From: a virus
Lineage: Duplodnaviria > Caudoviricetes
Direction: 5' to 3' (one strand)
Virus record (IMG/VR): IMGVR_UViG_3300021508_000029
Location: 1 to 61,503 of that record
DNA: 61,503 nucleotides
Shown: one piece after another, positions 676 to 61,503 of the stretch
How positions within the stretch are numbered: the first letter of the stretch is position 1
How the letters are laid out: each line of letters opens with the position of its first letter
Position numbers and translations under genes: made by a program
Notes under the pieces: model-generated
What the model was told of the DNA's origin: nothing
The model's database searches: none
Seen by the model: only the letters and a program-made list of their open reading frames with translations

Positions 676-732
676 CCTGGACAAGTGGATTTGTAAATAA
701 AATCCACCCAGTAAACCCAAGAAGATAAGCAT

Positions 733-763
733 ATGTATGTTTGGTTTAAATCAATTCATACAT
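733..763. repeat. Dispersed palindromic element, copy 1 (core TTGGTTTAAATCAA at 741-754)
   Basis: ATGTATG-T-core-TT-CATACAT imperfect inverted repeat; related copies elsewhere. Confidence 0.85.
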
Positions 764-10891: not shown

Positions 10892-11776
10892 ATGCCAATA
10901 TTAACAACTTCCAGTGAGCCAGCATTTATAAAAATGCTATTCCTTGCTTATTCTGGTGAAGGTAAATCTACCGCAATGGTTCCACTTTCAATCCCCGGTT
11001 ATCATGATAACCCAGGATATGAACTTAGGTGGCTTGATTTCGACGGTAAGGCTGAAGAGGTTATCCGTTCTATTTTAGCCCGCCTCTTATATAAAAAAGA
11101 AATCACACAAGATCAGCATGACAAGGCTCTCGCTAACAATGACGTATGTTCTTGTGTAGAAAGGACTGGAATTGTATCTGTGCGTGAGGGTAAAAAGACA
11201 ATTAAAAAGGTGGGTGTTTCAGGAACCGCAACTGCATGGAATAAGGCGGTCAAGCAAGTTGAGTTATGGAATAAAACATTTTCATCTAAAACAATACTTA
11301 TAGTTGATTCCCTTACTTATGCAAGTAAAGCAATTGTAAATGCCTCTCAGGATCTTAATGGGAAGCTTAACCAAGCCCTCGACTGGCGCGATTATCAAGG
11401 ACCTCAGCAAATAGTTGAAAATTTAATGACCCTATGTGCTGACCTCCCTACTCATGCTATAGTAACTGGCCACCAAGACCCATTAGAACTTTACAAGGCC
11501 ACTGATAAAATAGATGACAAAGGCCAACCAGTCGAAGACCTTATAGATACCCTTATGGTTCCTATATCAATTGGTCGAGCTGGTCGTATGAAGCTTCCAG
11601 CTCGCATGAACCATCTTCTTATAGCCTCTTCTGATGGTCGAGGCGCTGCTACACGTAGGTATATATTCACCGAGTCTCGCGTTGGTGTAGTAGCAAAAAC
11701 TCCTTTCTATGGATTATGTAAACCTAAATACCCTATCGAATACGGCCTTGTAGAGTATTTTAAATTACAAAAGTAA
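10892..11776 (+). CDS. Sak4-like (AAA_24, RecA-fold) ATPase/recombinase
   Basis: Walker A YSGEGKST, Walker B LIVDSLT, VTGH; neighbours an exonuclease and a putative SSB. Confidence 0.8.
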   Translation: MPILTTSSEPAFIKMLFLAYSGEGKSTAMVPLSIPGYHDNPGYELRWLDFDGKAEEVIRSILARLLYKKEITQDQHDKALANNDVCSCVERTGIVSVREGKKTIKKVGVSGTATAWNKAVKQVELWNKTFSSKTILIVDSLTYASKAIVNASQDLNGKLNQALDWRDYQGPQQIVENLMTLCADLPTHAIVTGHQDPLELYKATDKIDDKGQPVEDLIDTLMVPISIGRAGRMKLPARMNHLLIASSDGRGAATRRYIFTESRVGVVAKTPFYGLCKPKYPIEYGLVEYFKLQK

Positions 11777-12656: not shown

Positions 12657-14207
12657 ATGTTCTCAAATCGTATAGTCCAAGTTCTTACAGACGATATTCT
12701 AATCGACCGCCCAAACCGGCAACGTAGTGATTTAACACCTGAAGCAGTTATAAGTCTTGCTTATTCAATAGCAAAAAATCAATGGATTTCTCCTATTTTA
12801 ATTAATGAAGAAACTAATCACATTGTTGCTGGCGAACGTAGACTTACTGCAGTAAAAGTGCTTCATAGCTGTATTAATGGGGATTATTCAATATTCTCCA
12901 AACCAGACGAAGCCAGAGCCAAATTAGCTCACATATGTTCTTGTAAGGTTGATTCTTGGAAAGGGTGGACAAAGATACCATCTCAATTAGGAAAAAACCT
13001 AACCGAGCAAGAACTTGTTGTTTTTGAATTCATCGAAAATGCACAACGAAGTGATCTTAAATGGCAGGATAGAGCTAAGGCAATATATACTATTCATGCT
13101 CATGGCCTGGTTACAGAAAAGAAATGGAACAATCAACAAACAGGAGTCCTTGTAGGCCTTGATCATTCAAGCGTGGCTAAATGTTTGAAATTATGGAGAT
13201 TCATGATAGCGGCTGAAGTTGAAAAAAACACTAAATTAAAATTAATTATCACTGAAGCACCTACTTTACAATCCGCGCTTCAAACAATTGACCGGCATAT
13301 TTCTCGTAGACAAGATGATGTTGTATCTTTAACCTCGACAGCAATTGCACCTAAACCCAAAAATACAAAAGATATATCATCTAAACCCGGTCCAGCTATT
13401 GGAGTAGCACCTGTAATTGGTGGGGATATACCTGAGCTTGATGAAGATTTAAACGAGTATAATGAAGATGATAATCTTGAACTTTCTTCTCTCGGTAAAC
13501 AGCTTATTTTAAACCAAGACTTTAACTCGTGGGCAGAAAATTACGCTGGTCAACCTTTTAACTTTATTCATTGTGATTTCCCTTATGGTATTAATTTTAA
13601 TAAGGGTGTTTATGGCAATACGGTAAATTCTAAAATAACAAATGATTATTTAGATAGTCCAGATGTATATTGGGATTTATTAAATATTTTAGCCAAGCAT
13701 CAAGATAAATTAATTGCACCATCTGCTCATATAATGTTTTGGTTTTCGCAAAATCAGCGTAAAGAAACTGAAGATTTTTTCAACACAAACTTTAAAAAGT
13801 GTTTGGTTCAATCACATTTAATGATATGGCATTTTAGTGAAAATTCTGGAATTATTCCAGATTCTCAAAGATATGGAGTTCGTACTTACGAAACGGCTAT
13901 GTTAATTACTTTTGGTGATCGGTTTATAGTTGAGGCTAAATCATTATGTTTTGAAAGTTCGGCTGAGCGAAAAACACGTGTTCACCGTAGCCAAAAACCG
14001 CTTGCCGTTCTTAATCATTTCTTTAGAATGTTTGTAGATGATTCAAGCCGAGTTCTTGACCCGACAGCTGGTTCAGGAACAAGCCTAGTAGCCTCACATA
14101 ACTTAGAAGCAGAAGAGATTGTCGGACTCGAAATGCAAGAAGAAACGTATAAAACTGCTGTTAAATTTATTGATGAAGAACTAAGTAAAGAAGATATTAT
14201 ACTATAG
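12657..14207 (+). CDS. ParB-like N-terminal domain plus HTH, fused to an amino-DNA methyltransferase (beta-class motif order)
   Basis: RQR...ISPILI...IVAGERRLTA...ENAQRSDL; HTH QQTGVLVGLDHSSVAKCL; MTase HCDFPYG, HRSQKP, VLDPTAGSGTS. Confidence 0.88.
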   Translation: MFSNRIVQVLTDDILIDRPNRQRSDLTPEAVISLAYSIAKNQWISPILINEETNHIVAGERRLTAVKVLHSCINGDYSIFSKPDEARAKLAHICSCKVDSWKGWTKIPSQLGKNLTEQELVVFEFIENAQRSDLKWQDRAKAIYTIHAHGLVTEKKWNNQQTGVLVGLDHSSVAKCLKLWRFMIAAEVEKNTKLKLIITEAPTLQSALQTIDRHISRRQDDVVSLTSTAIAPKPKNTKDISSKPGPAIGVAPVIGGDIPELDEDLNEYNEDDNLELSSLGKQLILNQDFNSWAENYAGQPFNFIHCDFPYGINFNKGVYGNTVNSKITNDYLDSPDVYWDLLNILAKHQDKLIAPSAHIMFWFSQNQRKETEDFFNTNFKKCLVQSHLMIWHFSENSGIIPDSQRYGVRTYETAMLITFGDRFIVEAKSLCFESSAERKTRVHRSQKPLAVLNHFFRMFVDDSSRVLDPTAGSGTSLVASHNLEAEEIVGLEMQEETYKTAVKFIDEELSKEDIIL

Positions 14208-24095: not shown

Positions 24096-27000
24096 CTAGT
24101 CCCTAACTCTTTTATTCCAAACTCCATTGAATCTTCTCCTAACTGAGGAGATTCTTTCTTCCAACGTTTTCTCAGTCTTATCATCTCCTCTAGCTCTTGC
24201 TGCATTTAATCTAACCCTCAAACTTCTTAACTGCCTTTCCGTATCTTTAACCTGGCTACTCATTCGAAGCACCTCCTTATACTCTTCTTTAGCTTTCTTC
24301 TGTTTATCCAAATCTTTTGTCTCGCCTCTTCCATATTCCTTAATAGCTTTCTCAGCACTTGCTACCTCTTTCACCCTATCATAATACTTTTGTGTATTCA
24401 TTCGGTCACTTGGTACAGCTGCAAACTGACTAAGAATAGGTATGTTTTTAGTTTTAATCTCATCTTCACTTAACGTGCTAGGTAGTCCACTTACACTAGT
24501 CATAAACTTTAACAGCCCAGCACCAAAGAAATTAACTGTATTTTGAAAGGTACTTGGACTTATGTCTGCCCAACCAGAATGTGCTATATCTCCACCGGTA
24601 GCTTCATTTAAAGTTCTTGACAAACCCTTATATATCTCTGGAGTATTTCGCCATGCAAGTTCAGCATCAGGTTTACTTCCTGCTCCAGGAAAATTAATAG
24701 GCCGTAATGGGTTGCCTGCAAAATTTTTATTTTCCACCACTTGTATAATAGGATCAAGTGCGGTGGGTGATATACCTTGTGCGAATGAGCCCCCACCCAA
24801 GGGGTTAAATGTATTTAATAACATAGTGATGGTATCCACACCTGTATCAGCTGCTGTCCGTATACCAGCGGCATTTTCACTTAACATCCCGCCCATACGC
24901 CATACCACATTATAAACCCAGGGAGCGGGGATTTTAACGAATTCCCCACCGATTTTAATGGGTAGAATAATGTTTCGTTCTTTCTCATATACTGGTATTT
25001 TATCCCATTCACTTACCCCCTCTTCATCATCATCTCCAATTGCCCGTCCAAGGGCATCGAATGTTGCGGACATTGCAATTGTACCAGCCACCATACCCAC
25101 AAGCTTTTTAGACTTCATCATATTTTTTATAACTTGTGCATTGCCTTGTACAGTCGCATTAAAGAATAAATAAAACATACCCATGCTAGATGAGTTAAAT
25201 CCCTTCCTCGTAAAGTTTGTTGTAAGATCTTTTGCAATTCTAGCTGCTTTAACATCTCCAACTTCTTTATACAAGGCTTCAAAAGTAGCCAGTCTCATAA
25301 TGTTTTCCACAATGATATTAGCTTTTTCAATATTATTGGCCATTTTAACTATTGTCTTTACTCCGGGTGTTCCTTCAATTTTAACTTTAGCATCAAAACT
25401 TTTTATACTTGTATCCATCTCCCGTAAGGATTCAACAAATGAAATCCGACCTCCAGCTTTTTCCCATCGTTCTACCATCTGCACATTCAAGTTTGCTGGG
25501 TCTCTATTTCCTTTCCAGTACACATCCATAAGGGCTTTAAATGTTTTACCATAGCTACCTATAATTTCTTTTGTATGGCTTTCAGCTTCACTCGCTTGCA
25601 TGTTATATACAGCAGTTAATGGATCACGAATAAGATTAGCCATTAAGAAAGCCGGGCTAGCACTCACCGCAGTAAACCTTACGATACTATTAACCCACCC
25701 AAAAACCTTACTTACAGATCCATGCTGTTGTGCGCCTAACTTATTGACTGCGGCAGCAAATACTGTAGCTCGCTCATTCTGCTCGATAGGACTAATAATT
25801 AATCTTTTACCTTTCCGAATAAGTCTTATATCCGTAGGGTTTAAATTAGATGTTTTCTTTTTCTTAACAAAACCTAATTCATCTGTAGCCGCTTGTGTAG
25901 TATCATTTCCTACAGTAAACCACTCTTTCCAGTTTAATTCGTTTTCCTTAATCTGCTCATATAAAAAATTATTAGCTAAATTCTTTTGTGCCGTTGCAGC
26001 TGCTGCATGTGCACGAGCTAATGTATTTTGAATTACATGAACTGGTTTACTTGCATTAGCTGATCCATATCTTACACTAATTCCTTTTGAAGGTCCGAAT
26101 CCCTTTTGATTTAGAAAGTCAAATGTTTTTTCATAGTCAAAAGCTTCTCGCCTTAAAGGTGCGTAATGTGGTTTATCCTTTATCATTGCAAGCTGTTCAG
26201 CTTGAGTAATATTCCCGCCTTCTTCAAGTAAATCTAATTGATGCTTAGTAAGTTGATCAAACACTGTAGCAATTTCATCTATTTTAGTGTTGTTCAAATG
26301 CCGATTATATATTTCTTCTGCATCAGGAGCATTAGCTGTATTAACTAATCCTTCTCCTTTTATAAACATACCTGAAGCATGTTGTTTGAATAACTGCCAT
26401 TCACTTGAAATACTAGTCTCATCCTTACCTTCTTCTATTCTTTCATGTTGAAAATATTCTTCCATTAAAGCATACATCCGTATTTGAGCTTCTTTGTTAT
26501 CTTTACCCTCTAGAATTTTATCTCGCTTCTCCTTTACCTCGTCTTGTTTTTCTTTAGTCAATCTAGGGAGTAAGCGGTTTATAAACTCATGTGAAGCTCG
26601 TTCAGACATATCCAAGTTTGCATTATCAAGGAAGATACTTCTAGCTGCTATCCAGTCGTTAACTTCTTCGAGTTTTATTCCTGATTCATCTACAAGTTTT
26701 ACTAATGGCTCAACAAATCTACGATTAATCTCGTCTATCTTAGTTGCCCGTTTAGATTCTGCAAGGTCAAATACGTCTTTAATTCCTTCATCCTTTTTCT
26801 CGATTGTGGCAAATGAATCTATAAACTTAACATACCAAGTTTGAAAAGTACCAAGTTCGTACTGCTCTCTAGGGTTGTCTTCCTTTGCATACATAGCCCT
26901 ACGGAAATCATCAGGCGAATCAAATATAGTTGACTGGAGAGAATCAGATAAATCAGTTGTACCAATAATGGGCTTAAGTGCTTGTTTATCTACATAAAGA

Positions 27001-30000
27001 TTATCTGCCAAGTTCGCCAAGTCGCCTTTAATATCTCCGGCTTTACTTTGTAGCTTGTTAATTATCTCTACATCATCCTCGTTAAAAATAACATAGTTAT
27101 AATTGCCTTCTCCTGCTTTCCTACTTGAACTGTCTAAATATTTATTACCTCGAATACCTATTTCCAATAGCTCATTAGATACTCGTCTTTGGCTATCTGA
27201 TTTATCTATAAGCCAACCATCTAAATTTTTAACTGCATAAAACTTACTTAATTCATTATAGAACTTATTCCCTGTCATCTCGTCCGTAATATACGAGCCC
27301 ATACCTGAATTAATAATAGCATTTTTAACATAATCTGATTGTTCAGTTAATGGCTTAGTCCAATCAAGATATTGATCCTGTTCCGGCTTAAGGTCTACTT
27401 CATAAAGATTACCTTTAGTTCCATCTTCCTTTAACTTATCTCTATACCATTGTCCAACACCTTTATCATCTGCAAAATATAAACCATGTCCTTGAGCTTG
27501 AGCACCTTCACCTGTGCCAATTTTTTCCATCAAAAACTTATCAATATCATGAGGTGTACCGTGAAAGGCTCTACTAAATAACTTCTGTTCATCACCTACA
27601 AAGTCTATAAATTGTTTACTTACTCTACCTTCAAGCCCTTGAGTTAAACCCCTATACAATAACCTTTCAATTTCATTTGCTTTCTTAGGGTCATTTACTA
27701 ATTGTTCAGCCTCCCTTAGCACATTCATACCTTGTGCATTAACATCTGAAATAGTTTTTGCCAGTTTTCTAGCTTGGTTAAGTATTGGAAAGTCAACAAG
27801 ATTGGTTGAAGCTTCAAACCCTCTCCAGCCTTCTTTATCTTGAGCCAACCAATCAAGCTCTTTGAGCAAAGCTGGTTTAAGTGAGTTTATATTTGTATTA
27901 TCTAACTCACTTGATAAATAGATTGTATCTCCTTGAGTATGAGCTTTATCTAATCCCATATATTTAAACTCAACTTTTTGACCCTTTAATTCAGAGTCAT
28001 TATCAAACAATATATTTGACTCCAAAACATCACTAAGCGTTTTTACTTCTCCTTTACTCACTCCTTCTTTAACTTGAATGTCTTGCTCAAGCTTCGATCC
28101 GACTCTAGGCGCACCCAAACGATCAAGCTCCTTAGCCAGGTTCAAACTATTCCCTACAGCCATGTGTGCATATTCAACTGCAAGTTCGGGTGTAAGTTGG
28201 AAATCAATCCCAACTGCTCTAGCCGCTCGACCAATTGAAGTCTCCCTAAACTTAGCTTTAAGTGTATCAGTCATTCTACGAGATAACCCGCTCTGCTGGT
28301 TTGATTCTTGAGAGAGCTGGATATACCAAGCAGCCAGTTCTTCCTTAGCTTGAAAATTAAGCTTATTAGGAACTTTCTCTTTTCCAAATAATTTTTCTTT
28401 AGCCGCTTGTGCAACCTTATTTCCTGCCTCAGCTTGCTTAAGTATATCCTTATTAAACCCTTCTAGTTTCCCGCCCAGAAGTCGATCAAGCCCTGAGTGA
28501 GAACTCTCATGCAAAATAACACTCGCAACATTATCACCTTCGACTTGTGAGCCACCATAGATATTAAAAACTCCTCTATTTAAATCAAACTCTCCTTGTG
28601 CATTATCAGTACTTGCTTCGTTAGTAAAATTTAAAATCCCTGCTTGTTCAAGCTTATCTACAGTTTTTGGGTCTATAAACTTCCTTGCTTCCTCACGCAT
28701 CTGGTCGCTGGTTTTAGCTACAAGGTTTACATCTTTACCTTCAAACCTAGATTGTGTTCCACCTTCTGAGGCTAGGAAATCTAAATCAAGATCTTTACCT
28801 TTAACCTGTTTTTCTTGCCACAGTCCTTCAGAATCTTTAAACCATTTAGGATTATCAACTAAACCTCGGGCTAGTGCTTGCCCTTCAGTTAGCTCAAGCC
28901 CGGTTTGTTTTTTCCCTTGTGGGTTTGTTTTAATAATCCACCCATTATCTTTCTCAACCACCTCAGCATTAGCAAGACCTTCCCTGCCCATAGCAGCTTC
29001 AGCAGCACGAGGTGATTTAAACACTTCTGTATCTTTTTCCGTAGTTACTGTCCCTTCCACAAACGAACCTTGGCCTTTACGCTCAGCTTCTAATCTAGAT
29101 TCTGTTTCTAAGTTAACCTCTTGTTTTTTACGTACAGTATTACCTTTATTATCTTGACCATAAGTAATTGCCTCTTCCTTAATCTCGTCTTGCTTTTCAA
29201 ATAATTCTGCATTAGTATCATCTAAATATACTAACTCACCTTTGTCTCTAGTATATTGATAATCATCTACATCCTGATAAATAATTTCTCCTTGTTTATT
29301 TTTACCTACCTCAACATCAGCCTCTGCTACTTTAGTTAAGGGTTCCACAACATCTGGCTCTATAGCTTTAGGCTGTGTAATAATAGGCTCGACAACAGGA
29401 TCAACAACCGAACTGGCTTCCTCTATAATTTCTGGTTCGGCTACAGATTCTTGTTGGTTAATTACTTCTTCAGGCTTTTTACCTACAACCTGTTTTAGAT
29501 CTATATCTGATTTTGGTTCTTGCTTCGGGCTAGCTAAGGTCCCAAGTCCACCTCCAGCTACTCCACCAACTAGCCCACCAGCAACTATTGCATTTTGAAC
29601 CTGACTCCAATCCTCGTCACTCAAGTCCGCAAACATTGGATCTTCTTTAGCCCAGCGTACTCCAGCAATATTAACTAACTGCTGCATCCCTTCTGTAAGC
29701 CCTTCAACTCCAGCACCCAAACTACCTGCCTTAGCAGCTCGACCACTAAGCTCTAGAGCCAAATTGCGTAAAATTTTATCTCCTTTAATAACCTTTCGTA
29801 TACTCTTTTTAGCTACATCTCCAGCACCAAGGCTCTTGGCCACCTTATAAAGTGGAAGAAATTCTAATGCACCGCTTAATCCGCCTATCCCGGTAGCCGC
29901 CCATTTAGCCCTTTCAGGATCAGCACCTTCTTCGATTGCTTCTCCGAAAGCTGCTCCGCCCTCATACCCCGCACCCGTTGCAAAACCACCTACAACTTCA

Positions 30001-30551
30001 CCACGTGTAAGTATTTTCTTAACTTCAGCTGTAGCCTTATCTTTAACCCCTTGAGTTACTTGCCGACCAACAAGATTCTTACCTACCTCAGTTCCTAAAA
30101 TATCTTTAGTAGCTGAACCTATTGCTTTTTTAGCTACCTGTCTACCAACAATACCACCAACACCTAAAGCTGCTAAGTTTGGAAGCCCCTTACCCAATTG
30201 ATAACCTACAAAGTCACCGACACTTCCAGTCTCTCCTATGTCTTCAAACTTAGAAACCTTTGGAGCTTGTTGCCCAAAAGTAGCTTCCTCCATATTCCTT
30301 TTATAAACATCTAACCCATATTCGCTTGCTGGTTCAAGATACTTCTCCCCAAAGTTATCAGGAGTTACTGACTTTAAATGTTGTGCTCCTAGTGCAAGTA
30401 GTCCACCACCTATTGCTTGGCTTTCATCTCCAAACGCACGAACACCTTTACCGAATTCAGACATCTCAGGACGTAAGTCCACCTTCCTATTCGGGTCATA
30501 AGGTTCATTTGCATATTTATCATAGGGATTAAGTGCTAGTTGGTTAGCCAT
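24096..30551 (-). CDS. Large polyvalent internal virion/ejection protein (zincin peptidase-like, ART-like and LPD38-like domains)
   Basis: Gly/Ala-rich N-terminus; VILHESSHSGL (HExxH); AFHGTPH...IGTGEGAQAQGHGLYFA...NYVIF; C-terminal WDKIPVYEKERN...KIPAP...ENKNFAGNP. Confidence 0.8.
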   Translation of the reverse strand: MANQLALNPYDKYANEPYDPNRKVDLRPEMSEFGKGVRAFGDESQAIGGGLLALGAQHLKSVTPDNFGEKYLEPASEYGLDVYKRNMEEATFGQQAPKVSKFEDIGETGSVGDFVGYQLGKGLPNLAALGVGGIVGRQVAKKAIGSATKDILGTEVGKNLVGRQVTQGVKDKATAEVKKILTRGEVVGGFATGAGYEGGAAFGEAIEEGADPERAKWAATGIGGLSGALEFLPLYKVAKSLGAGDVAKKSIRKVIKGDKILRNLALELSGRAAKAGSLGAGVEGLTEGMQQLVNIAGVRWAKEDPMFADLSDEDWSQVQNAIVAGGLVGGVAGGGLGTLASPKQEPKSDIDLKQVVGKKPEEVINQQESVAEPEIIEEASSVVDPVVEPIITQPKAIEPDVVEPLTKVAEADVEVGKNKQGEIIYQDVDDYQYTRDKGELVYLDDTNAELFEKQDEIKEEAITYGQDNKGNTVRKKQEVNLETESRLEAERKGQGSFVEGTVTTEKDTEVFKSPRAAEAAMGREGLANAEVVEKDNGWIIKTNPQGKKQTGLELTEGQALARGLVDNPKWFKDSEGLWQEKQVKGKDLDLDFLASEGGTQSRFEGKDVNLVAKTSDQMREEARKFIDPKTVDKLEQAGILNFTNEASTDNAQGEFDLNRGVFNIYGGSQVEGDNVASVILHESSHSGLDRLLGGKLEGFNKDILKQAEAGNKVAQAAKEKLFGKEKVPNKLNFQAKEELAAWYIQLSQESNQQSGLSRRMTDTLKAKFRETSIGRAARAVGIDFQLTPELAVEYAHMAVGNSLNLAKELDRLGAPRVGSKLEQDIQVKEGVSKGEVKTLSDVLESNILFDNDSELKGQKVEFKYMGLDKAHTQGDTIYLSSELDNTNINSLKPALLKELDWLAQDKEGWRGFEASTNLVDFPILNQARKLAKTISDVNAQGMNVLREAEQLVNDPKKANEIERLLYRGLTQGLEGRVSKQFIDFVGDEQKLFSRAFHGTPHDIDKFLMEKIGTGEGAQAQGHGLYFADDKGVGQWYRDKLKEDGTKGNLYEVDLKPEQDQYLDWTKPLTEQSDYVKNAIINSGMGSYITDEMTGNKFYNELSKFYAVKNLDGWLIDKSDSQRRVSNELLEIGIRGNKYLDSSSRKAGEGNYNYVIFNEDDVEIINKLQSKAGDIKGDLANLADNLYVDKQALKPIIGTTDLSDSLQSTIFDSPDDFRRAMYAKEDNPREQYELGTFQTWYVKFIDSFATIEKKDEGIKDVFDLAESKRATKIDEINRRFVEPLVKLVDESGIKLEEVNDWIAARSIFLDNANLDMSERASHEFINRLLPRLTKEKQDEVKEKRDKILEGKDNKEAQIRMYALMEEYFQHERIEEGKDETSISSEWQLFKQHASGMFIKGEGLVNTANAPDAEEIYNRHLNNTKIDEIATVFDQLTKHQLDLLEEGGNITQAEQLAMIKDKPHYAPLRREAFDYEKTFDFLNQKGFGPSKGISVRYGSANASKPVHVIQNTLARAHAAAATAQKNLANNFLYEQIKENELNWKEWFTVGNDTTQAATDELGFVKKKKTSNLNPTDIRLIRKGKRLIISPIEQNERATVFAAAVNKLGAQQHGSVSKVFGWVNSIVRFTAVSASPAFLMANLIRDPLTAVYNMQASEAESHTKEIIGSYGKTFKALMDVYWKGNRDPANLNVQMVERWEKAGGRISFVESLREMDTSIKSFDAKVKIEGTPGVKTIVKMANNIEKANIIVENIMRLATFEALYKEVGDVKAARIAKDLTTNFTRKGFNSSSMGMFYLFFNATVQGNAQVIKNMMKSKKLVGMVAGTIAMSATFDALGRAIGDDDEEGVSEWDKIPVYEKERNIILPIKIGGEFVKIPAPWVYNVVWRMGGMLSENAAGIRTAADTGVDTITMLLNTFNPLGGGSFAQGISPTALDPIIQVVENKNFAGNPLRPINFPGAGSKPDAELAWRNTPEIYKGLSRTLNEATGGDIAHSGWADISPSTFQNTVNFFGAGLLKFMTSVSGLPSTLSEDEIKTKNIPILSQFAAVPSDRMNTQKYYDRVKEVASAEKAIKEYGRGETKDLDKQKKAKEEYKEVLRMSSQVKDTERQLRSLRVRLNAARARGDDKTEKTLEERISSVRRRFNGVWNKRVRD

Positions 30552-57058: not shown

Positions 57059-57540
57059 ACCGAGTCCTGTTTAATGTCACGGAAGTTATGGATGATTTTA
57101 TCTTTAGGAGTTTCCGAAGTTAGGTTATGGCAAATAGTACAAGAAGTTATGGATTTATATCCGAGCTTCTTAAGGAGTTTAGTGTATAATTCGCGCTGAT
57201 CAAAGGTGTCTGTATAAGTATATTTAACCTCGATAAGGATAGAAGTTCCATATAAAGAGATAAGTACGAAATCTGGTTGAGCAAAAAATTTATTGTTATA
57301 TTTTATCCATTTATGAGAAGCAAGTTCAAATCCTTCAAGATTTGTAAGGGCAATTAGTTCTTTTTCAACCCTTTTCTCATAACGAATACCTATTGTTTGA
57401 GCAGGTGAATTCTTTTTATCTATTTTAACAAACCCAGGAGTATCTACCCATTGCACGCTTTTGATTAAGTTATCTGGTTTTCTGGGTTTAGTTAAAATAA
57501 TATGATTAGCCGGTTTAAAGGCTTCTGTCATAAAACTCAT
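57040..57540 (-). CDS. PD-(D/E)XK nuclease (possible resolvase)
   Basis: YE...QPDF...IEVK...Q..LY. Confidence 0.7.
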   Translation of the reverse strand: MSFMTEAFKPANHIILTKPRKPDNLIKSVQWVDTPGFVKIDKKNSPAQTIGIRYEKRVEKELIALTNLEGFELASHKWIKYNNKFFAQPDFVLISLYGTSILIEVKYTYTDTFDQRELYTKLLKKLGYKSITSCTICHNLTSETPKDKIIHNFRDIKQDSVWQLRI

Positions 57541-57763: not shown

Positions 57764-58059
57764 CACAATAACTTATAAACAGCGCAATCTTATACGGGGC
57801 ATCGGTTTCGGGCAGTTTGAAAAGCTGCTATATAGAGTCAACGTATGTACAAAACCCTTTGTATAAACTTTTTCATTATTTAATTTACATAGTTAGAGTG
57901 GGTCTCGATTATTTGGTATAAATAATTTTGAGCTGATGGACAATAGTACTACCAGCTACGAAATAAAGAACACCCAGGGGTCTTTCATATATATAAAAAG
58001 AGCAAGAAAACGAGGTCAGCTTACCCAGTATGGGGCTTTGAGTACGGATTAAGTGGCAC

Positions 58060-58113
58060 GGGATTTCGTGGGCAAGCTGTGCGGGATTTCGTGCCTTTGT
58101 GTGGGATTTCGTG
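58060..58113. repeat. Three direct repeats of GGGATTTCGTG
   Basis: At 58060, 58083 and 58103. Confidence 0.9.
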
Positions 58114-58178
58114 GGCACTAAGTAATCGTGTTGATTGTATATTGCCCCATACCCTTGTGCCACGCCAGAGCTGTTTGT

Positions 58179-58194
58179 TGGCACAAGCTGTGCA
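58179..58194 (+). promoter_or_regulatory. Sigma54-like -24/-12 motif
   Basis: TGGCAC-AAGCT-GTGCA. Confidence 0.45.
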
Positions 58195-58249
58195 TATATA
58201 TTATCATGTCCAGGATTAAACGTATTGATACATTAAATACAAATAACTC

Positions 58250-58277
58250 TTGACATACACGTTTAATGTGATAAGCT
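58250..58277 (+). promoter_or_regulatory. Sigma70-type early promoter
   Basis: TTGACA, 16 bp, TAAGCT with TG and an AT-rich upstream region. Confidence 0.65.
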
Positions 58278-58305
58278 GTATACATTGAACAAAACAAGTA
58301 TATAA

Positions 58306-58345
58306 ACGTGTTGGTGGTTTGATTTAATCAATACGTACATATGAT
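58306..58345. repeat. Dispersed palindromic element, copy 8 (TTGATTTAATCAA at 58319-58331)
   Basis: Read directly; just downstream of the early promoter. Confidence 0.8.
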
Positions 58346-58394
58346 TACATTATATATATGTGAACGCTCTTTAACAATTCGGGTATTAAAAAAG

Positions 58395-58438
58395 AATCAC
58401 ATGTATGTTTGGTTTTTAAACCAATCATATGTATGATT
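58395..58438. repeat. Dispersed palindromic element, copy 9 (TTGGTTTTTAAACCAA at 58409-58424)
   Basis: AATCACATGTATG...CATATGTATGATT flanks. Confidence 0.8.
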
Positions 58439-58480
58439 GCTTTATATCTCTCCCAGTAACGCACTTGTGGTTTGAGTGTG

Positions 58481-58693
58481 TTATTGTAAGCAGTCTTAAT
58501 TGACTTGGAGAAAATTATGAAAAAAGAAATTGATTATTGTGCTGGCGGTATTTATTTATCTGTCCAAGGTACAAATTTGTGTGAATATTATGATAATAGT
58601 TATTGGACGGCTGTAGAAGCTGTTATCCATTTTGAACAATATGTTAAATTTTACACCCTTTAATTAATCAAAACATAAGACTGCTTACAATAA
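58481..58693. repeat. Perfect 18-bp inverted repeat pair enclosing a small ORF
   Basis: TTATTGTAAGCAGTCTTA (58481-58498) and TAAGACTGCTTACAATAA (58676-58693). Confidence 0.9.
58517..58663 (+). CDS. 48-aa early protein (not in ORF track)
   Basis: GGAG RBS; MKKEIDYCAGGIYLSVQGTNLCEYY... Confidence 0.65.
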   Translation: MKKEIDYCAGGIYLSVQGTNLCEYYDNSYWTAVEAVIHFEQYVKFYTL

Positions 58694-58730
58694 TCTAGTA
58701 TTTTGCTGGGTTATAAATGGAGATATAAAA

Positions 58731-58994
58731 ATGAATCAAGAACAACTTAATAAACTTGTACAAAGTAAAATTAGCATAACTGAAGCTGATATAATAATTG
58801 TACACTTCGATCCCGAATACAAAGCCATTAAAGTTGATATTCAATGGGAGGGCTTTGCGGATTTTGAAACAGAAGCTGAAATGCAAAACGCGGTTGAAGA
58901 ACGTGCAATTATGGGTTCAATTGCTTTCATGGATGAGCATTCTGGTGAAAGCATAACAGCATATGCAATGAATTGGACAGCAGAAAAGGAGTAA
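58731..58994 (+). CDS. Acidic early protein
   Basis: GGAGATATAAAAATG RBS. Confidence 0.8.
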   Translation: MNQEQLNKLVQSKISITEADIIIVHFDPEYKAIKVDIQWEGFADFETEAEMQNAVEERAIMGSIAFMDEHSGESITAYAMNWTAEKE

Positions 58995-59071
58995 TCCCCA
59001 GAGAGGACTTTAACAAGTCCTTTCGCGGAATTATTTATATCAAGTAATTCATTTAAATTGGAGATATAAAA

Positions 59072-59308
59072 ATGAGTAAACACACCGTAAAAATTGGGTC
59101 AAACTCGATTGAATTTGATGATGCTGTATTCGATAAAAAAGTAATAGATTATCTTATTCAATTGGGCTTAACGCATCTTATGCACTCAAGATTCCAAGCA
59201 GCTAAACGGGGTAAAAACCTCAACCAAGCCGAAATAGATTTTATGTTTAAACGATGTGCTAAAAGAATACAAAATTTAAAGGTAGAACAAAAATCGGTTA
59301 TAAGCTAA
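59072..59308 (+). CDS. Early protein, short paralog of 59735-60232
   Basis: Shared RBS; similarity seen by eye. Confidence 0.8.
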   Translation: MSKHTVKIGSNSIEFDDAVFDKKVIDYLIQLGLTHLMHSRFQAAKRGKNLNQAEIDFMFKRCAKRIQNLKVEQKSVIS

Positions 59309-59387
59309 GTAACGCCAGAATATATCTTTATAAAAAGGGTATATTCGGAGTTATTTATTTGGAATAACTTAAATTGGAGATATAAAA

Positions 59388-59654
59388 ATGAGTCACCTTG
59401 CACATGAATTTGTATCAGAAGCAGATATATTTAATGCCGTTGAAAGTCAAATTTTAAGCGAAATACCTGAAATTAATATTAATTTATCAGTGAAATTTAT
59501 TTGTAAAAACAAACAAATACAATTTATTGATGAAGATAATAATATTAATTGTACTGCAGTGTATCACGAGTGGGCTGAAGAAGTATGGATAATTACAGAA
59601 TATGTAAATAAATGTTCAATCGGCAAGTTTACTTTTAAATTGCTTATTGAATAA
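59388..59654 (+). CDS. Early hypothetical protein
   Basis: Shared RBS. Confidence 0.8.
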   Translation: MSHLAHEFVSEADIFNAVESQILSEIPEININLSVKFICKNKQIQFIDEDNNINCTAVYHEWAEEVWIITEYVNKCSIGKFTFKLLIE

Positions 59655-59734
59655 TAAGACCCACATAAGATATCTTTATAAAAAGGGTATCTTGTGAGTA
59701 TCTTATTGTGAGATATTGTAATGGAGATATAAAA

Positions 59735-60232
59735 ATGAGTAAATTTACTGTAACAAGTCACGGAACCAAGTTTGATTTTGATACCGAAACTGGAGACTGG
59801 ACAGATGAGGTTATTCTTGCCCATGCAAAGCAAGGAATTAAAATCCGGCTTGACCGTTCAAGTGCCTCATTGACTAAAAAAGATGGTTCAACTGACCAAG
59901 ACCGTTTGAATTGTGCCATGAAAGTGGCTAAATCCATCCAGAGTGGTGAAATGCCTAAATCTGGTGGCGGTGGAAGTCGTTTAACAATTAAAGATCGGGC
60001 TTTAAAAGCCGCTCTGTTGGTTAAGTTAAGCTTTGAAAAGAAAGAAACCATAAGCGAGGCTTTGGAACGGTATACCAAGGCCATTGCTGAAGGACAGAAA
60101 AAGGACTTTGAGCCAGAAATGGTTGAAAAAGTAAAAGCAGCTTTGGAAAATACCCCAGTTTACAAGAACATGATTGAATTGGAAGAAAGCAAGCTGGTTA
60201 AAACAGATGATATGGGAGATTTAAGTTTATAA
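59735..60232 (+). CDS. Early protein
   Basis: Start moved to the ATG at 59735, after the shared RBS. Confidence 0.85.
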   Translation: MSKFTVTSHGTKFDFDTETGDWTDEVILAHAKQGIKIRLDRSSASLTKKDGSTDQDRLNCAMKVAKSIQSGEMPKSGGGGSRLTIKDRALKAALLVKLSFEKKETISEALERYTKAIAEGQKKDFEPEMVEKVKAALENTPVYKNMIELEESKLVKTDDMGDLSL

Positions 60233-60309
60233 AATAAGGAGTAACACTTAAGACTCATTAGAAATAGTGGGTCTTGTGGGTTATTTTGACCCATTAACAG
60301 GAGATATAA

Positions 60310-60429
60310 ATGGACATTAAAGAAGTATTATTGAATATTATAGATGATATTGGTATATTTGCATGGCTCGGACTATCTAAAGAGGAGCAAAACAGATTAA
60401 TCTCTATTGAAATATACGGAGATATATAA
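60310..60429 (+). CDS. 39-aa early peptide (not in ORF track)
   Basis: AGGAGATATAAATG RBS; followed by a terminator. Confidence 0.7.
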   Translation: MDIKEVLLNIIDDIGIFAWLGLSKEEQNRLISIEIYGDI

Positions 60430-60434
60430 AAGAT

Positions 60435-60471
60435 AAAAAAGACCAGTTATCACAAGGTGGCTGGTCTTTTT
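60435..60471. terminator. Probably bidirectional rho-independent terminator
   Basis: AAAAAAGACCAGTTATC-ACAA-GGTGGCTGGTCTTTTT. Confidence 0.85.
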
Positions 60472-60476
60472 ACGTA

Positions 60477-60492
60477 TGTTCCACGTGGAACT
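60477..60492. promoter_or_regulatory. parS: Chromosomal-type parS site
   Basis: TGTTCCACGTGGAACT; perfect 14-bp palindrome, 15/16 match to TGTTNCACGTGNAACA. Confidence 0.75.
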
Positions 60493-60617
60493 ATAAGTAA
60501 ATACGTTTCCCTCCTTTAATTCGTTTAAAATTCTTACCAAGCCAGGGCTTATATAGCAATATCGGATGAATATACTTTCCTACATTATGTAAATTTACCG
60601 TAGCCAAAAGGTTGCTC

Positions 60618-60858
60618 TATGCAAAACCCATGCCAAGCCTAGATAACCCATTGATTTTATCCACACCCAATTATCTATGCACAACCCATGCCAACATTTA
60701 AACCCATAAAAACACAGCAAAACTTGCCCCAAAAACCCGCTTATGCAAAACCCATGCCAAAACAAAAGCTGGTCATTTCTTAACCATAATTGCCCTTAAC
60801 AATACGTTACCAGTGAAAAACACCTCCAAAAAACCACGTTATGCAAAACCCATGCCAA
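60618..60858 (-). promoter_or_regulatory. Array of four sigma54 -24/-12 motifs
   Basis: TATGCA(A/C)AACCCATGCCAA at 60618, 60676, 60742 and 60840; minus strand TTGGCAT-GGGTT-(T/G)TGCATA. Confidence 0.75.
60644..60665. promoter_or_regulatory. IHF consensus site abutting a perfect DnaA box
   Basis: Minus strand AATCAATGGGTTA (60644-60656); TTATCCACA (60657-60665). Confidence 0.55.
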
Positions 60859-60864
60859 AGAAGC

Positions 60865-60877
60865 TAAGTTATTGATT
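60865..60877 (-). promoter_or_regulatory. IHF consensus site
   Basis: Minus strand AATCAATAACTTA. Confidence 0.55.
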
Positions 60878-60934
60878 CTAGGGGTTATTCGTACATACAT
60901 ATTCTTAACCACTTTCCAAATATTTACAGATAAA

Positions 60935-60972
60935 CATACATATGTTTGGTTTAAATCAATTCATACATACGT
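60935..60972. repeat. Dispersed palindromic element, copy 10 (TTGGTTTAAATCAA at 60946-60959)
   Basis: TATGTTTGGTTTAAATCAATTCATACATAC is identical to copy 1. Confidence 0.9.
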
Positions 60973-61014
60973 TTTAACTACCATTTTTTACGTGTAGTTA
61001 AGCATTTTGTAGGT

Positions 61015-61421
61015 AAACGTATGTATCTTAAACGTACCACAGGTCTACCAAAACGTACCACAGGTCTACCACAGGTCTACCACCCGTCTAGCACCCGTCT
61101 ACCGCTACCCACCAAACGTACCAAAACAGGATCTCACGTAAAGAAATACGTTTCCCTCCCCTTCCTATAATAGGGATTTGAGGAATACGAAAAGCTCTAT
61201 AATAAAATATATATATATATATATATAAGAGAAGAAAGACTCTTCTTTTTCTCACCTATTTAAAATATATATATATACACATATATACATACCTATCCAC
61301 TTTAAAATATATCTATATAAACCTGGCTCAAACGTATTCACGTTATCCACCCCCAGATCTCACATTGGTACGTTTAATAGACCCTTAATAGACCCCCCAT
61401 AGACCCTTAATAGACCCCCCA
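61015..61421. other. Putative replication origin
   Basis: Phased GTCTA array (61043-61101), AT-rich centre with (AT)n tracts, inverted phased TAGAC array (61378-61415), repeated AAACGTA heptamers. Confidence 0.55.
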
Positions 61422-61503
61422 TAAGTTTGGTTGTTTATTACGCGGGTAACCCATTAACGTGAACAACCCATGACAACCGTATCATTTATACATCATCATT
61501 CAC
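61368..61503. repeat. Terminal direct repeat / circular assembly overlap (copy 2)
   Basis: Matches 1-136. Confidence 0.95.

Follow-up and report, generated by a model that had tools for sequence, protein, structure and literature searches.

The window analysed here is the whole of an IMG/VR record of 61,503 bases, estimated to be 97% complete, and represents a near-complete 61.5-kb uncultured phage. Its sequence is contained in a single public run, a hydrothermal-vent metagenome from which it probably derives. Bases 1-136 repeat bases 61368-61503 with one mismatch, which leaves a unit genome of about 61.4 kb. Either a direct terminal repeat or an overlap from assembly could account for this, and IMG/VR classes the record as linear without end repeats despite this overlap of its ends. 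The plus strand from 103 to 24053 is devoted to replication, with a helicase, an exonuclease, a ligase, a split PolA-type polymerase, a primase, a dCTP deaminase-like protein and, at 12657-14207, a fusion of a ParB-like N-terminal domain to a DNA methylase. The minus strand from 24096 to 57540 forms a 33-kb structural operon that includes the large terminase, an SU10-type portal and a polyvalent protein of 2151 aa (24096-30551, minus strand); in this last protein an LPD38 domain is found, along with an ADP-ribosyltransferase (ART-PolyVal) match that stays below threshold. Small plus-strand early genes then make up a short operon at about 58518-60429, which is closed by a hairpin terminator and whose members have in common a conserved ribosome-site/start sequence. 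Within 58695-59782, four small early ORFs show a near-identical ribosome-site/start block, GGAGATATAAAAATGA, at distances of 316-347 nt, and in two of them the first codons are alike too, suggesting a tandem paralogue family. No close cultured phage was found (terminase searches gave less than 60% identity), a DNA search with 58000-61503 had no match in the phage collection, and a search for the host among bacterial genomes returned one short MAG contig only.

No credible gene lies from 60472 through the record end to about position 100. A non-coding, repeat-rich region of about 1.1 kb, close to the terminal overlap of the record, holds the feature of interest here: an array of four near-identical elements on the minus strand. 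The array is 340-430 nt from an AT-rich (TA)n tract and 0.65-0.9 kb from the terminal overlap, and the region as a whole has the appearance of an origin or a terminal region. Its other repeats include ACCACAGGTCTACC-type direct repeats (61030-61100), the (TA)n tract itself (61200-61290) and ATAGACCC units with an 11-nt period (61377-61420, equivalent to 10-53); ACGT-containing words (AAACGTA) are common in it. Priming of an origin was considered as the main role of the elements and was set aside because they face away from the (TA)n tract.

The four elements are copies of TTGGCATGGGTT(T/G)TGCATA with starts at 60618, 60676, 60742 and 60840, which gives start-to-start spacings of 58, 66 and 98 nt. 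Site 1 (60618-60636), site 3 (60742-60760) and site 4 (60840-60858) all read TTGGCATGGGTTTTGCATA, and site 2 (60676-60694) reads TTGGCATGGGTTGTGCATA; this one change in 76 nt across the four 19-mers (75/76 identical) is located in the T-tract of the -12 element. The gap from GG to GC is exactly 10 nt in 4/4 copies. With up to three mismatches allowed, the window has exactly four matches, all on the minus strand, as compared with 0.04 expected from shuffled sequences, and none of 100 shuffles reached four. The coordinates and the GG-N10-GC spacing reported in a preliminary description of the locus, which took the elements for sigma-54-type -24/-12 sequences, were all reproduced. A 31-nt query around site 1 found only single matches in cultured phages, mostly in coding places.

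The copies have partly similar surroundings. Sites 3 and 4 are 81% identical over 43 nt including the downstream flank (repeat family D4). At 61460-61477 on the minus strand, GTTGTCATGGGTTGTTCA (repeat family D6) represents a further copy, decayed to the point that GG and GC are both gone. These resemblances would fit a recent local duplication of one sigma-54-like site that left functionless copies behind. We consider this the least probable of all the explanations discussed below, and a very improbable one in absolute terms: the flanks have drifted to 63-81% identity while the 19-mers remain near-identical, which argues for selection on the 19-mer.

The immediate surroundings contain several further putative protein-binding sites. 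The IHF consensus WATCAANNNNTTR has eight matches in the window vs. 6.85 expected, i.e., there is no window-wide enrichment. What is notable about these matches is that two of them have the same placement relative to the sites and are on the same strand: AATCAATGGGTTA (60644-60656, minus strand) is 7 nt upstream of site 1, and AATCAATAACTTA (60865-60877, minus strand) is 6 nt upstream of site 4, in agreement with the earlier remark that two of the elements have an IHF site just above them. Further up, about 75-95 nt upstream of site 4 and centred near -110, is a palindrome-containing 21-mer (AAACCAAACATATGTATGTTT and variants; 60932-60952, minus strand). This 21-mer has three matches in total where none is expected, the other two being at 58418-58438 (plus strand) and 727-747 (minus strand), and all three are in non-coding control regions; a weaker copy is seen at 58390-58410. 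The palindrome is probably the operator of some regulator, and on its position it is a candidate activator/operator site for site 4.

In the other direction, the sites point at a bidirectional intrinsic terminator (60435-60471, both strands), 152 nt downstream of site 1 and common to the plus-strand early operon, which lies beyond it in convergent orientation. The stem is formed by GACCAG (60441-60446) and CTGGTC (60461-60466), with an A-run at 60435-60440 and a T-run at 60467-71, and the minus-strand RNA folds into a hairpin followed by a U-run; a simple terminator scan did not list the hairpin because its loop exceeds the limit of the scan. The earlier picture of elements antisense to the early genes and aimed at a terminator about 150 bp away is therefore accurate. 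Between the terminator and site 1 is a parS-like palindrome, TGTTCCACGTGGAACT (60477-60492, both strands), so called by its likeness to TGTTNCACGTGNAACA, which we take to be the consensus of the chromosomal ParB site parS. Perfect parS-like copies occur in two of the terminase relatives described below (L017:6666 and L018:1063), and the palindrome is found again at L141:9653. A group of small podoviruses of about 11 kb has two to three copies per inverted terminal repeat (L068:252-309, 11475-11532), adjoining that group's sigma-54-like pairs; bases 1-33 of L068 presumably are sequencing-adapter sequence, so that the apparent end of this record is not a true genome end. Altogether 39 parS-like sites were counted in 2.04 Mb of fetched loci, vs. 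about one expected. The control region of the phage would thus appear to be a collection of putative sites for several host DNA-binding proteins (sigma-54, IHF, and whatever reads the parS-like palindrome).

There is no gene for the elements to drive, as had been noted at the outset: the minus-strand ORFs of at least 20 aa below the sites start with TTG or GTG and have no ribosome site. The claim that the phage encodes no enhancer-binding ATPase also stands, since Pfam searches of the record with PF00158 (bEBP AAA+) gave no match at E <= 1; the same was true of PF04552 (sigma-54 DNA-binding) and of PF04542 and PF04545 (sigma-70). The protein at 10892-11776 has a sub-threshold AAA_24 match, of the type of phage recombination ATPases rather than of activators. 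A phage sigma factor of the phiEco32/7-11 type, as presented in the relevant section of PMC4331800, was considered and dropped, given that the window has no sigma-70 domains. Based on the usual distance from -12 to +1, transcription from site 1 would start at about 60609 and yield an RNA of about 174-177 nt to the terminator, and sites 2, 3 and 4 would give RNAs of about 232, 298 and 396 nt. The predicted RNA of about 177 nt has no Rfam match at threshold (two sub-threshold matches only) and no extra structure over shuffled sequences (z -0.29), and none of the public RNA runs listed contains the locus.

Are the four elements read by sigma-54? The published consensus, given as mrNrYTGGCACG-N4-TTGCWNNw in the section of PMC2725144 that deals with it, is matched by the 19-mer at 11/12 defined core positions, the exception being a T for C in TGGCAC. 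In the flank, the Y at -1 is present in 4/4 copies, and mrNr is complete in site 2 only. The main competing view is that the repeats are iterons or operators for a protein other than sigma-54, phage-encoded or not, with a role in replication, packaging or partition; on this view the 19-mer would be two TTKGCAT half-sites 11 nt apart and its likeness to a sigma-54 site a coincidence. Several features of the window speak for it. The whole 19-mer, spacer included, is conserved between diverged flanks; the decayed copy retains the spacer and has lost GG and GC; and the surroundings offer other repeat families, AT-rich (TA)n, a parS-like site and a nearby terminal overlap. In lambda cosB, repeated terminase sites are likewise combined with an IHF site. 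The chance of matching 11-12 defined sigma-54 positions is, however, only about 2e-7 per position, and the comparative evidence from relatives and from unrelated viruses goes against such a coincidence.

The relatives were collected through the terminase and comprise 74 loci (33 viral and 41 metagenomic, 644 kb, some of which duplicate one another). Perfect consensus sites number 11, where 0.3 are expected, and are spread over 9 of these loci; 11/11 are upstream of the terminase gene and 10/11 are on the early-gene strand. What these relatives conserve is TGGCAYG and TTGCW, with spacers that vary (GTTA, AAAA, AATA, GAAT, GTGT, GGGA and others). The point is seen best in the pair L023 and L042, which are 84% identical over the site region: each of their two orthologous sites has two spacer differences, and 0/24 consensus positions differ. 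The kinship of L023 to the present phage extends to a 174-aa gene homologous to window 59708-60232 (30% identity over 76 aa, E 1e-8). In the viral collection the 174-aa protein adjoining the array has no relative, and the NUDIX protein near the array has distant relatives only. The preliminary description had proposed that conservation limited to the -24/-12 bases would mark sigma-54 sites and that equal conservation of the spacer would mark iterons. The former was found in the relatives, whose spacers differ; inside the window, where the spacer is as conserved as the rest, the same reasoning points to iterons.

In L023, L141, L246 and L262, the single or double site is followed, after 55-125 nt, by a near-consensus sigma-70 promoter and then the early genes. 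The window carries the same module: a fifth sigma-54-type site, TGGCACAAGCTGTGCA (58179-58194, plus strand), is 56 nt upstream of a sigma-70-like promoter at 58250-58277 (TTGACA-N16-TAAGCT) and of the plus-strand early genes. Because it matches the arrangement in the relatives, this plus-strand site, and not the array, is the family-conserved element. Just upstream of it, at 58055-58113, a direct repeat with GGGATTTCGTG at its end occurs three times at distances of 20-23 nt; the first copy starts with TGGCACG and lacks GC at -12. The four-copy array past the operon terminator, on the strand opposite to that of the relatives' sites, was seen only in this phage among the relatives examined. Of the metagenome contigs scanned, none had the window's 19-mer twice; a metagenome scan with the terminase found close relatives of 94% and 91% identity, on contigs of 1.2-1.9 kb that end short of the array.

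A second comparison was made with unrelated viruses. The exact 19-mer is present in seven viral contigs (L001-L007), none of which has any protein match to the window ORFs. In two of them (L001 and L003), nine sites are arranged in 47-nt units on alternating strands; in two others (L004 and L006), five or six sites point forward and two point back, at intervals of about 35 nt. When the search was widened to two consensus sites 15-45 nt apart, such tandem pairs were found in at least 120 viral contigs vs. 2 for a reversed-pattern control, which addresses a tandem-repeat artefact for the viral collection only; a 596-Gb prokaryote collection gave 65. In bacteria, plain tandem repeats can produce such pairs, as seen in genomes of Actinoplanes and Gracilibacillus that have no sigma-54 domain hit, and among five bacterial genomes checked for this domain, two of them chosen on suspicion of its absence, 2/5 had it and 3/5 did not. 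A Leptonemataceae MAG contig (L187, 3168-4600 and beyond) has a very large tandem array, with 86 co-oriented consensus sites at multiples of 21 nt in one 8-kb stretch. The number of sites per viral array ranges from 2 to 18; intervals of 25-37 nt are common, as are pairs placed face to face. At the upper end is an array in a 147-kb record (L099, 5660-6445), the largest encountered in a virus, which packs 18 sites into 800 nt in oppositely oriented blocks and has two smaller arrays nearby. No sites were found in two cultured small podoviruses with inverted terminal repeats, Salmonella phage astrithr and Vibrio phage K58 g2.

When the 126 array-bearing loci were grouped by the proteins that they share at distances of up to 4 kb from the array, 35 groups resulted and no family bridged them; the locus counts are not independent, since 71 of the 126 are one lineage. 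The largest groups have 71, 11 and 5 loci, and the window belongs to the group of 5. The existence of 35 groups without a shared neighbouring protein favours a common host factor over a common phage protein. It is also hard to reconcile with iterons in the usual sense, a repeat specific to one replicon and accompanied by its own binding protein, as the same 19-mer recurs in viruses with no protein in common with this one. The unselected flanks of 514 unique sites read A/A/A/G/T, with T at 0.69, and so follow the published mrNrY preference. Taking the relatives, the unrelated viruses and the independence of the groups together, sigma-54 is the best reader of the sites: the relatives keep only the -24/-12 bases and the unrelated viral arrays have variable spacers. 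With good but incomplete confidence, we infer that the four elements are real recognition sites for host sigma-54 (RpoN) holoenzyme. Binding by another protein in replication, packaging or partition is improbable by comparison, given the same evidence.

By crude ORF calls, the gene that an intergenic array site faces runs in the same direction as the site in 248 cases and in the opposite direction in 95; the remaining sites are inside crude ORFs (164) or face contig ends (54). Larger viral records have their sites distributed over several kb, and a complete 94-kb genome has 13/14 of them within 16.5-19.6 kb. Enhancer-binding ATPases were found in 0/5 of the larger array-bearing viral records, so that, with the present phage, none was found in six records. 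Strong sigma-70-like promoters are beside the arrays in 23% of 264 outward flanks vs. 3.8% of 497 random windows, a contrast that is generous because random windows are mostly coding. Since such promoters adjoin them, the arrays are not sole promoters.

Our leading reading, held tentatively and with somewhat less than even confidence, is that the array is a promoter cassette gated by a host activator, with a nested series of non-coding RNAs (about 174-396 nt) as its product. The sites would form a one-directional cassette in the non-coding, origin-like control region of the phage, with IHF-type bends just above sites 1 and 4 and the candidate regulator palindrome about 110 nt above the predicted start of site 4. 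Host sigma-54 holoenzyme would dock at the sites as closed complexes. Because the phage has no enhancer-binding ATPase, firing would require an active one from the host, and through this dependence the cassette would read host physiology. The output would be the four leftward RNAs described above, ending at the terminator common to the convergent early operon, and any read-through would be antisense to that operon. In its layout, from the palindrome through the IHF match near -40 to the -24/-12 sequence, site 4 resembles classical sigma-54 promoters, and site 1 with its approximately 170 nt and terminator has a layout like that of sigma-54-dependent small-RNA genes. The prevailing co-orientation of array sites with genes, and their spread over kilobases in the larger records, also fit promoters. 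Against this, searches for an activator gene came up empty here and in the five other array records, and no known activator site was recognised. The spacer is conserved in the window like the -24/-12 bases, no gene is downstream, a terminator is only 152 nt off, and the RNA has neither a significant fold nor an Rfam family. Plain promoters would be unusual at spacings of 25-37 nt, as face-to-face pairs or in groups of up to 18, all of which are seen in other viruses, and the four sites are on the strand opposite to that of the relatives' sites.

Promoters on this strand might have another purpose. The sites share their strand with the 33-kb structural operon (24096-57540) and are convergent with the early operon, and no phage sigma factor or RNA polymerase was found to drive the late genes. 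Anti-terminated leftward transcripts could silence the 2-kb early operon (58.5-60.4 kb) and enter the late operon at 57540, making the array an early-to-late switch. Such a switch is very unlikely, only slightly more credible than duplication remnants: a good terminator and 3 kb of antisense sequence intervene, sigma-70-like minus-strand promoters are nearer to the late operon (e.g., 57763-57735), the relatives' sites are on the early-gene strand, and no activator was found.

A more serious competitor of the promoter cassette, though still rather unlikely in our estimate, is that the sites never fire at all. Holoenzyme or free sigma-54 would be held in stable closed complexes, as a silent trap, sponge or roadblock, either to soak up scarce host sigma-54 and blunt its programmes, or to separate the early operon from the origin-like terminal region by a block of bound protein. 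The missing downstream gene, the close terminator and the missing activator speak for this reading, and four near-consensus, almost identical copies at spacings of 58, 66 and 98 nt permit simultaneous occupancy. The arrays of other viruses, with up to 18 sites, some face-to-face at 25-37 nt, resemble binding arrays more than promoters, and the neighbouring genes are already served by canonical sigma-70 promoters. Sigma-54 is scarce, with only about 100 copies per cell in E. coli. In the parts of PMC3844500 that bear on this question, holoenzyme sequestration is named as a possible role of non-promoter sigma-54 sites, and the sigma-54-dependent genes are said to include psp, rtcBA and a cas operon. 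However, a pure trap needs no fixed orientation, and for this reason the co-orientation of 248 vs. 95 sites with genes and the early-strand position of 10/11 sites in the relatives count against it. So does the promoter-like spread of sites over several kb in large viral records; a decoy has no obvious need for IHF sites; and no description of sigma-54 site arrays or decoys in phages was found as a precedent in open-access PMC and bioRxiv texts. The order in which we place the readings is thus the host-gated cassette, the trap or roadblock, iterons, the read-through late switch and duplication remnants. The guesses of the preliminary description (a sponge or roadblock, a source of primer or antisense RNAs, a sensor of host state) are not separable by this analysis, and its interpretation as a whole is partly supported.

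It is worth comparing the array with known systems, as sigma-54 promoters, IHF dependence and non-promoter sigma-54 sites are all known already. Enhancer-dependent sigma-54 promoters that work with IHF include Pu, nifH and glnHp2. They have the same GG-N10-GC spacing, YTGGCAYG-N4-TTGCW core, upstream IHF-type site and palindrome further up. Unlike them, the array has four tandem copies, no downstream gene and no activator gene, its IHF match near -40 is closer than usual, and its carrier is a lytic-type phage. Sigma-54-dependent small-RNA genes are represented by Qrr1-4. Another is glmY, as stated in the relevant part of PMC6075780. The array shares with these genes a sigma-54-type promoter, 100-200 nt of non-coding sequence and an intrinsic terminator, and differs in having no Rfam match, no significant fold, four nested starts and no known activator site.

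Tandem host-polymerase promoters are familiar from phage T7, where A1-A3 are early sigma-70 promoters that drive the early genes from near the genome end. The present sites are similar in being several strong putative promoters for host polymerase in tandem near what may be a genome end, but they are of the sigma-54 type and face a terminator. In E. coli and Salmonella, non-promoter and intragenic sigma-54 sites bind holoenzyme, according to the portions of PMC4591121 and PMC3844500 concerned with them. Those sites, too, have a strong consensus and no obvious gene to drive, and binding is predicted here; they are, as far as these portions describe them, single and chromosomal, whereas the sites here are clustered, intergenic and viral. 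A further parallel is the presence of CtrA sites in the genomes of alphaproteobacterial phages, used for sensing the state of the host according to the pertinent text of PMC9437464. As in those phages, so far as that text describes them, a control region has putative sites for a transcription factor which the host supplies and for which the phage has no gene of its own. The differences are that sigma-54 is a sigma factor dependent on an ATPase activator and that its putative sites are grouped in arrays.

The array would represent a new kind of system only if the trap reading holds. In its most far-reaching form, which we think unlikely and less probable than a trap at this one locus, the site clusters would be a widespread, convergently acquired, DNA-encoded sponge on replicating phage DNA that captures the cell's sigma-54 and shuts its stress, repair and defence programmes without any phage protein, and the array with its parS-like and IHF sites would be a landing pad.

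To our knowledge, sigma-54 transcription is thought always to require an ATPase activator, and we know of no phage described as relying on sigma-54, nor did one emerge from the open-access PMC and bioRxiv texts searched. Against this background, an odd repeat in the window is recast as a defined set of putative host-factor sites (sigma-54, IHF, parS-like). If the sites are indeed used, there are three ways in which this could come about. Many environmental phages may tap the activator signalling of the host and so read its nitrogen, membrane stress, motility or quorum state; phages may bypass the activator by some unconventional route; or the sites may serve as silent traps for holoenzyme. Any of the three would be a new mode of transcriptional interplay between phage and host. 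Given the similar clusters in many unrelated environmental viruses, phages seem to use host sigma-54 in a way for which we found no description.
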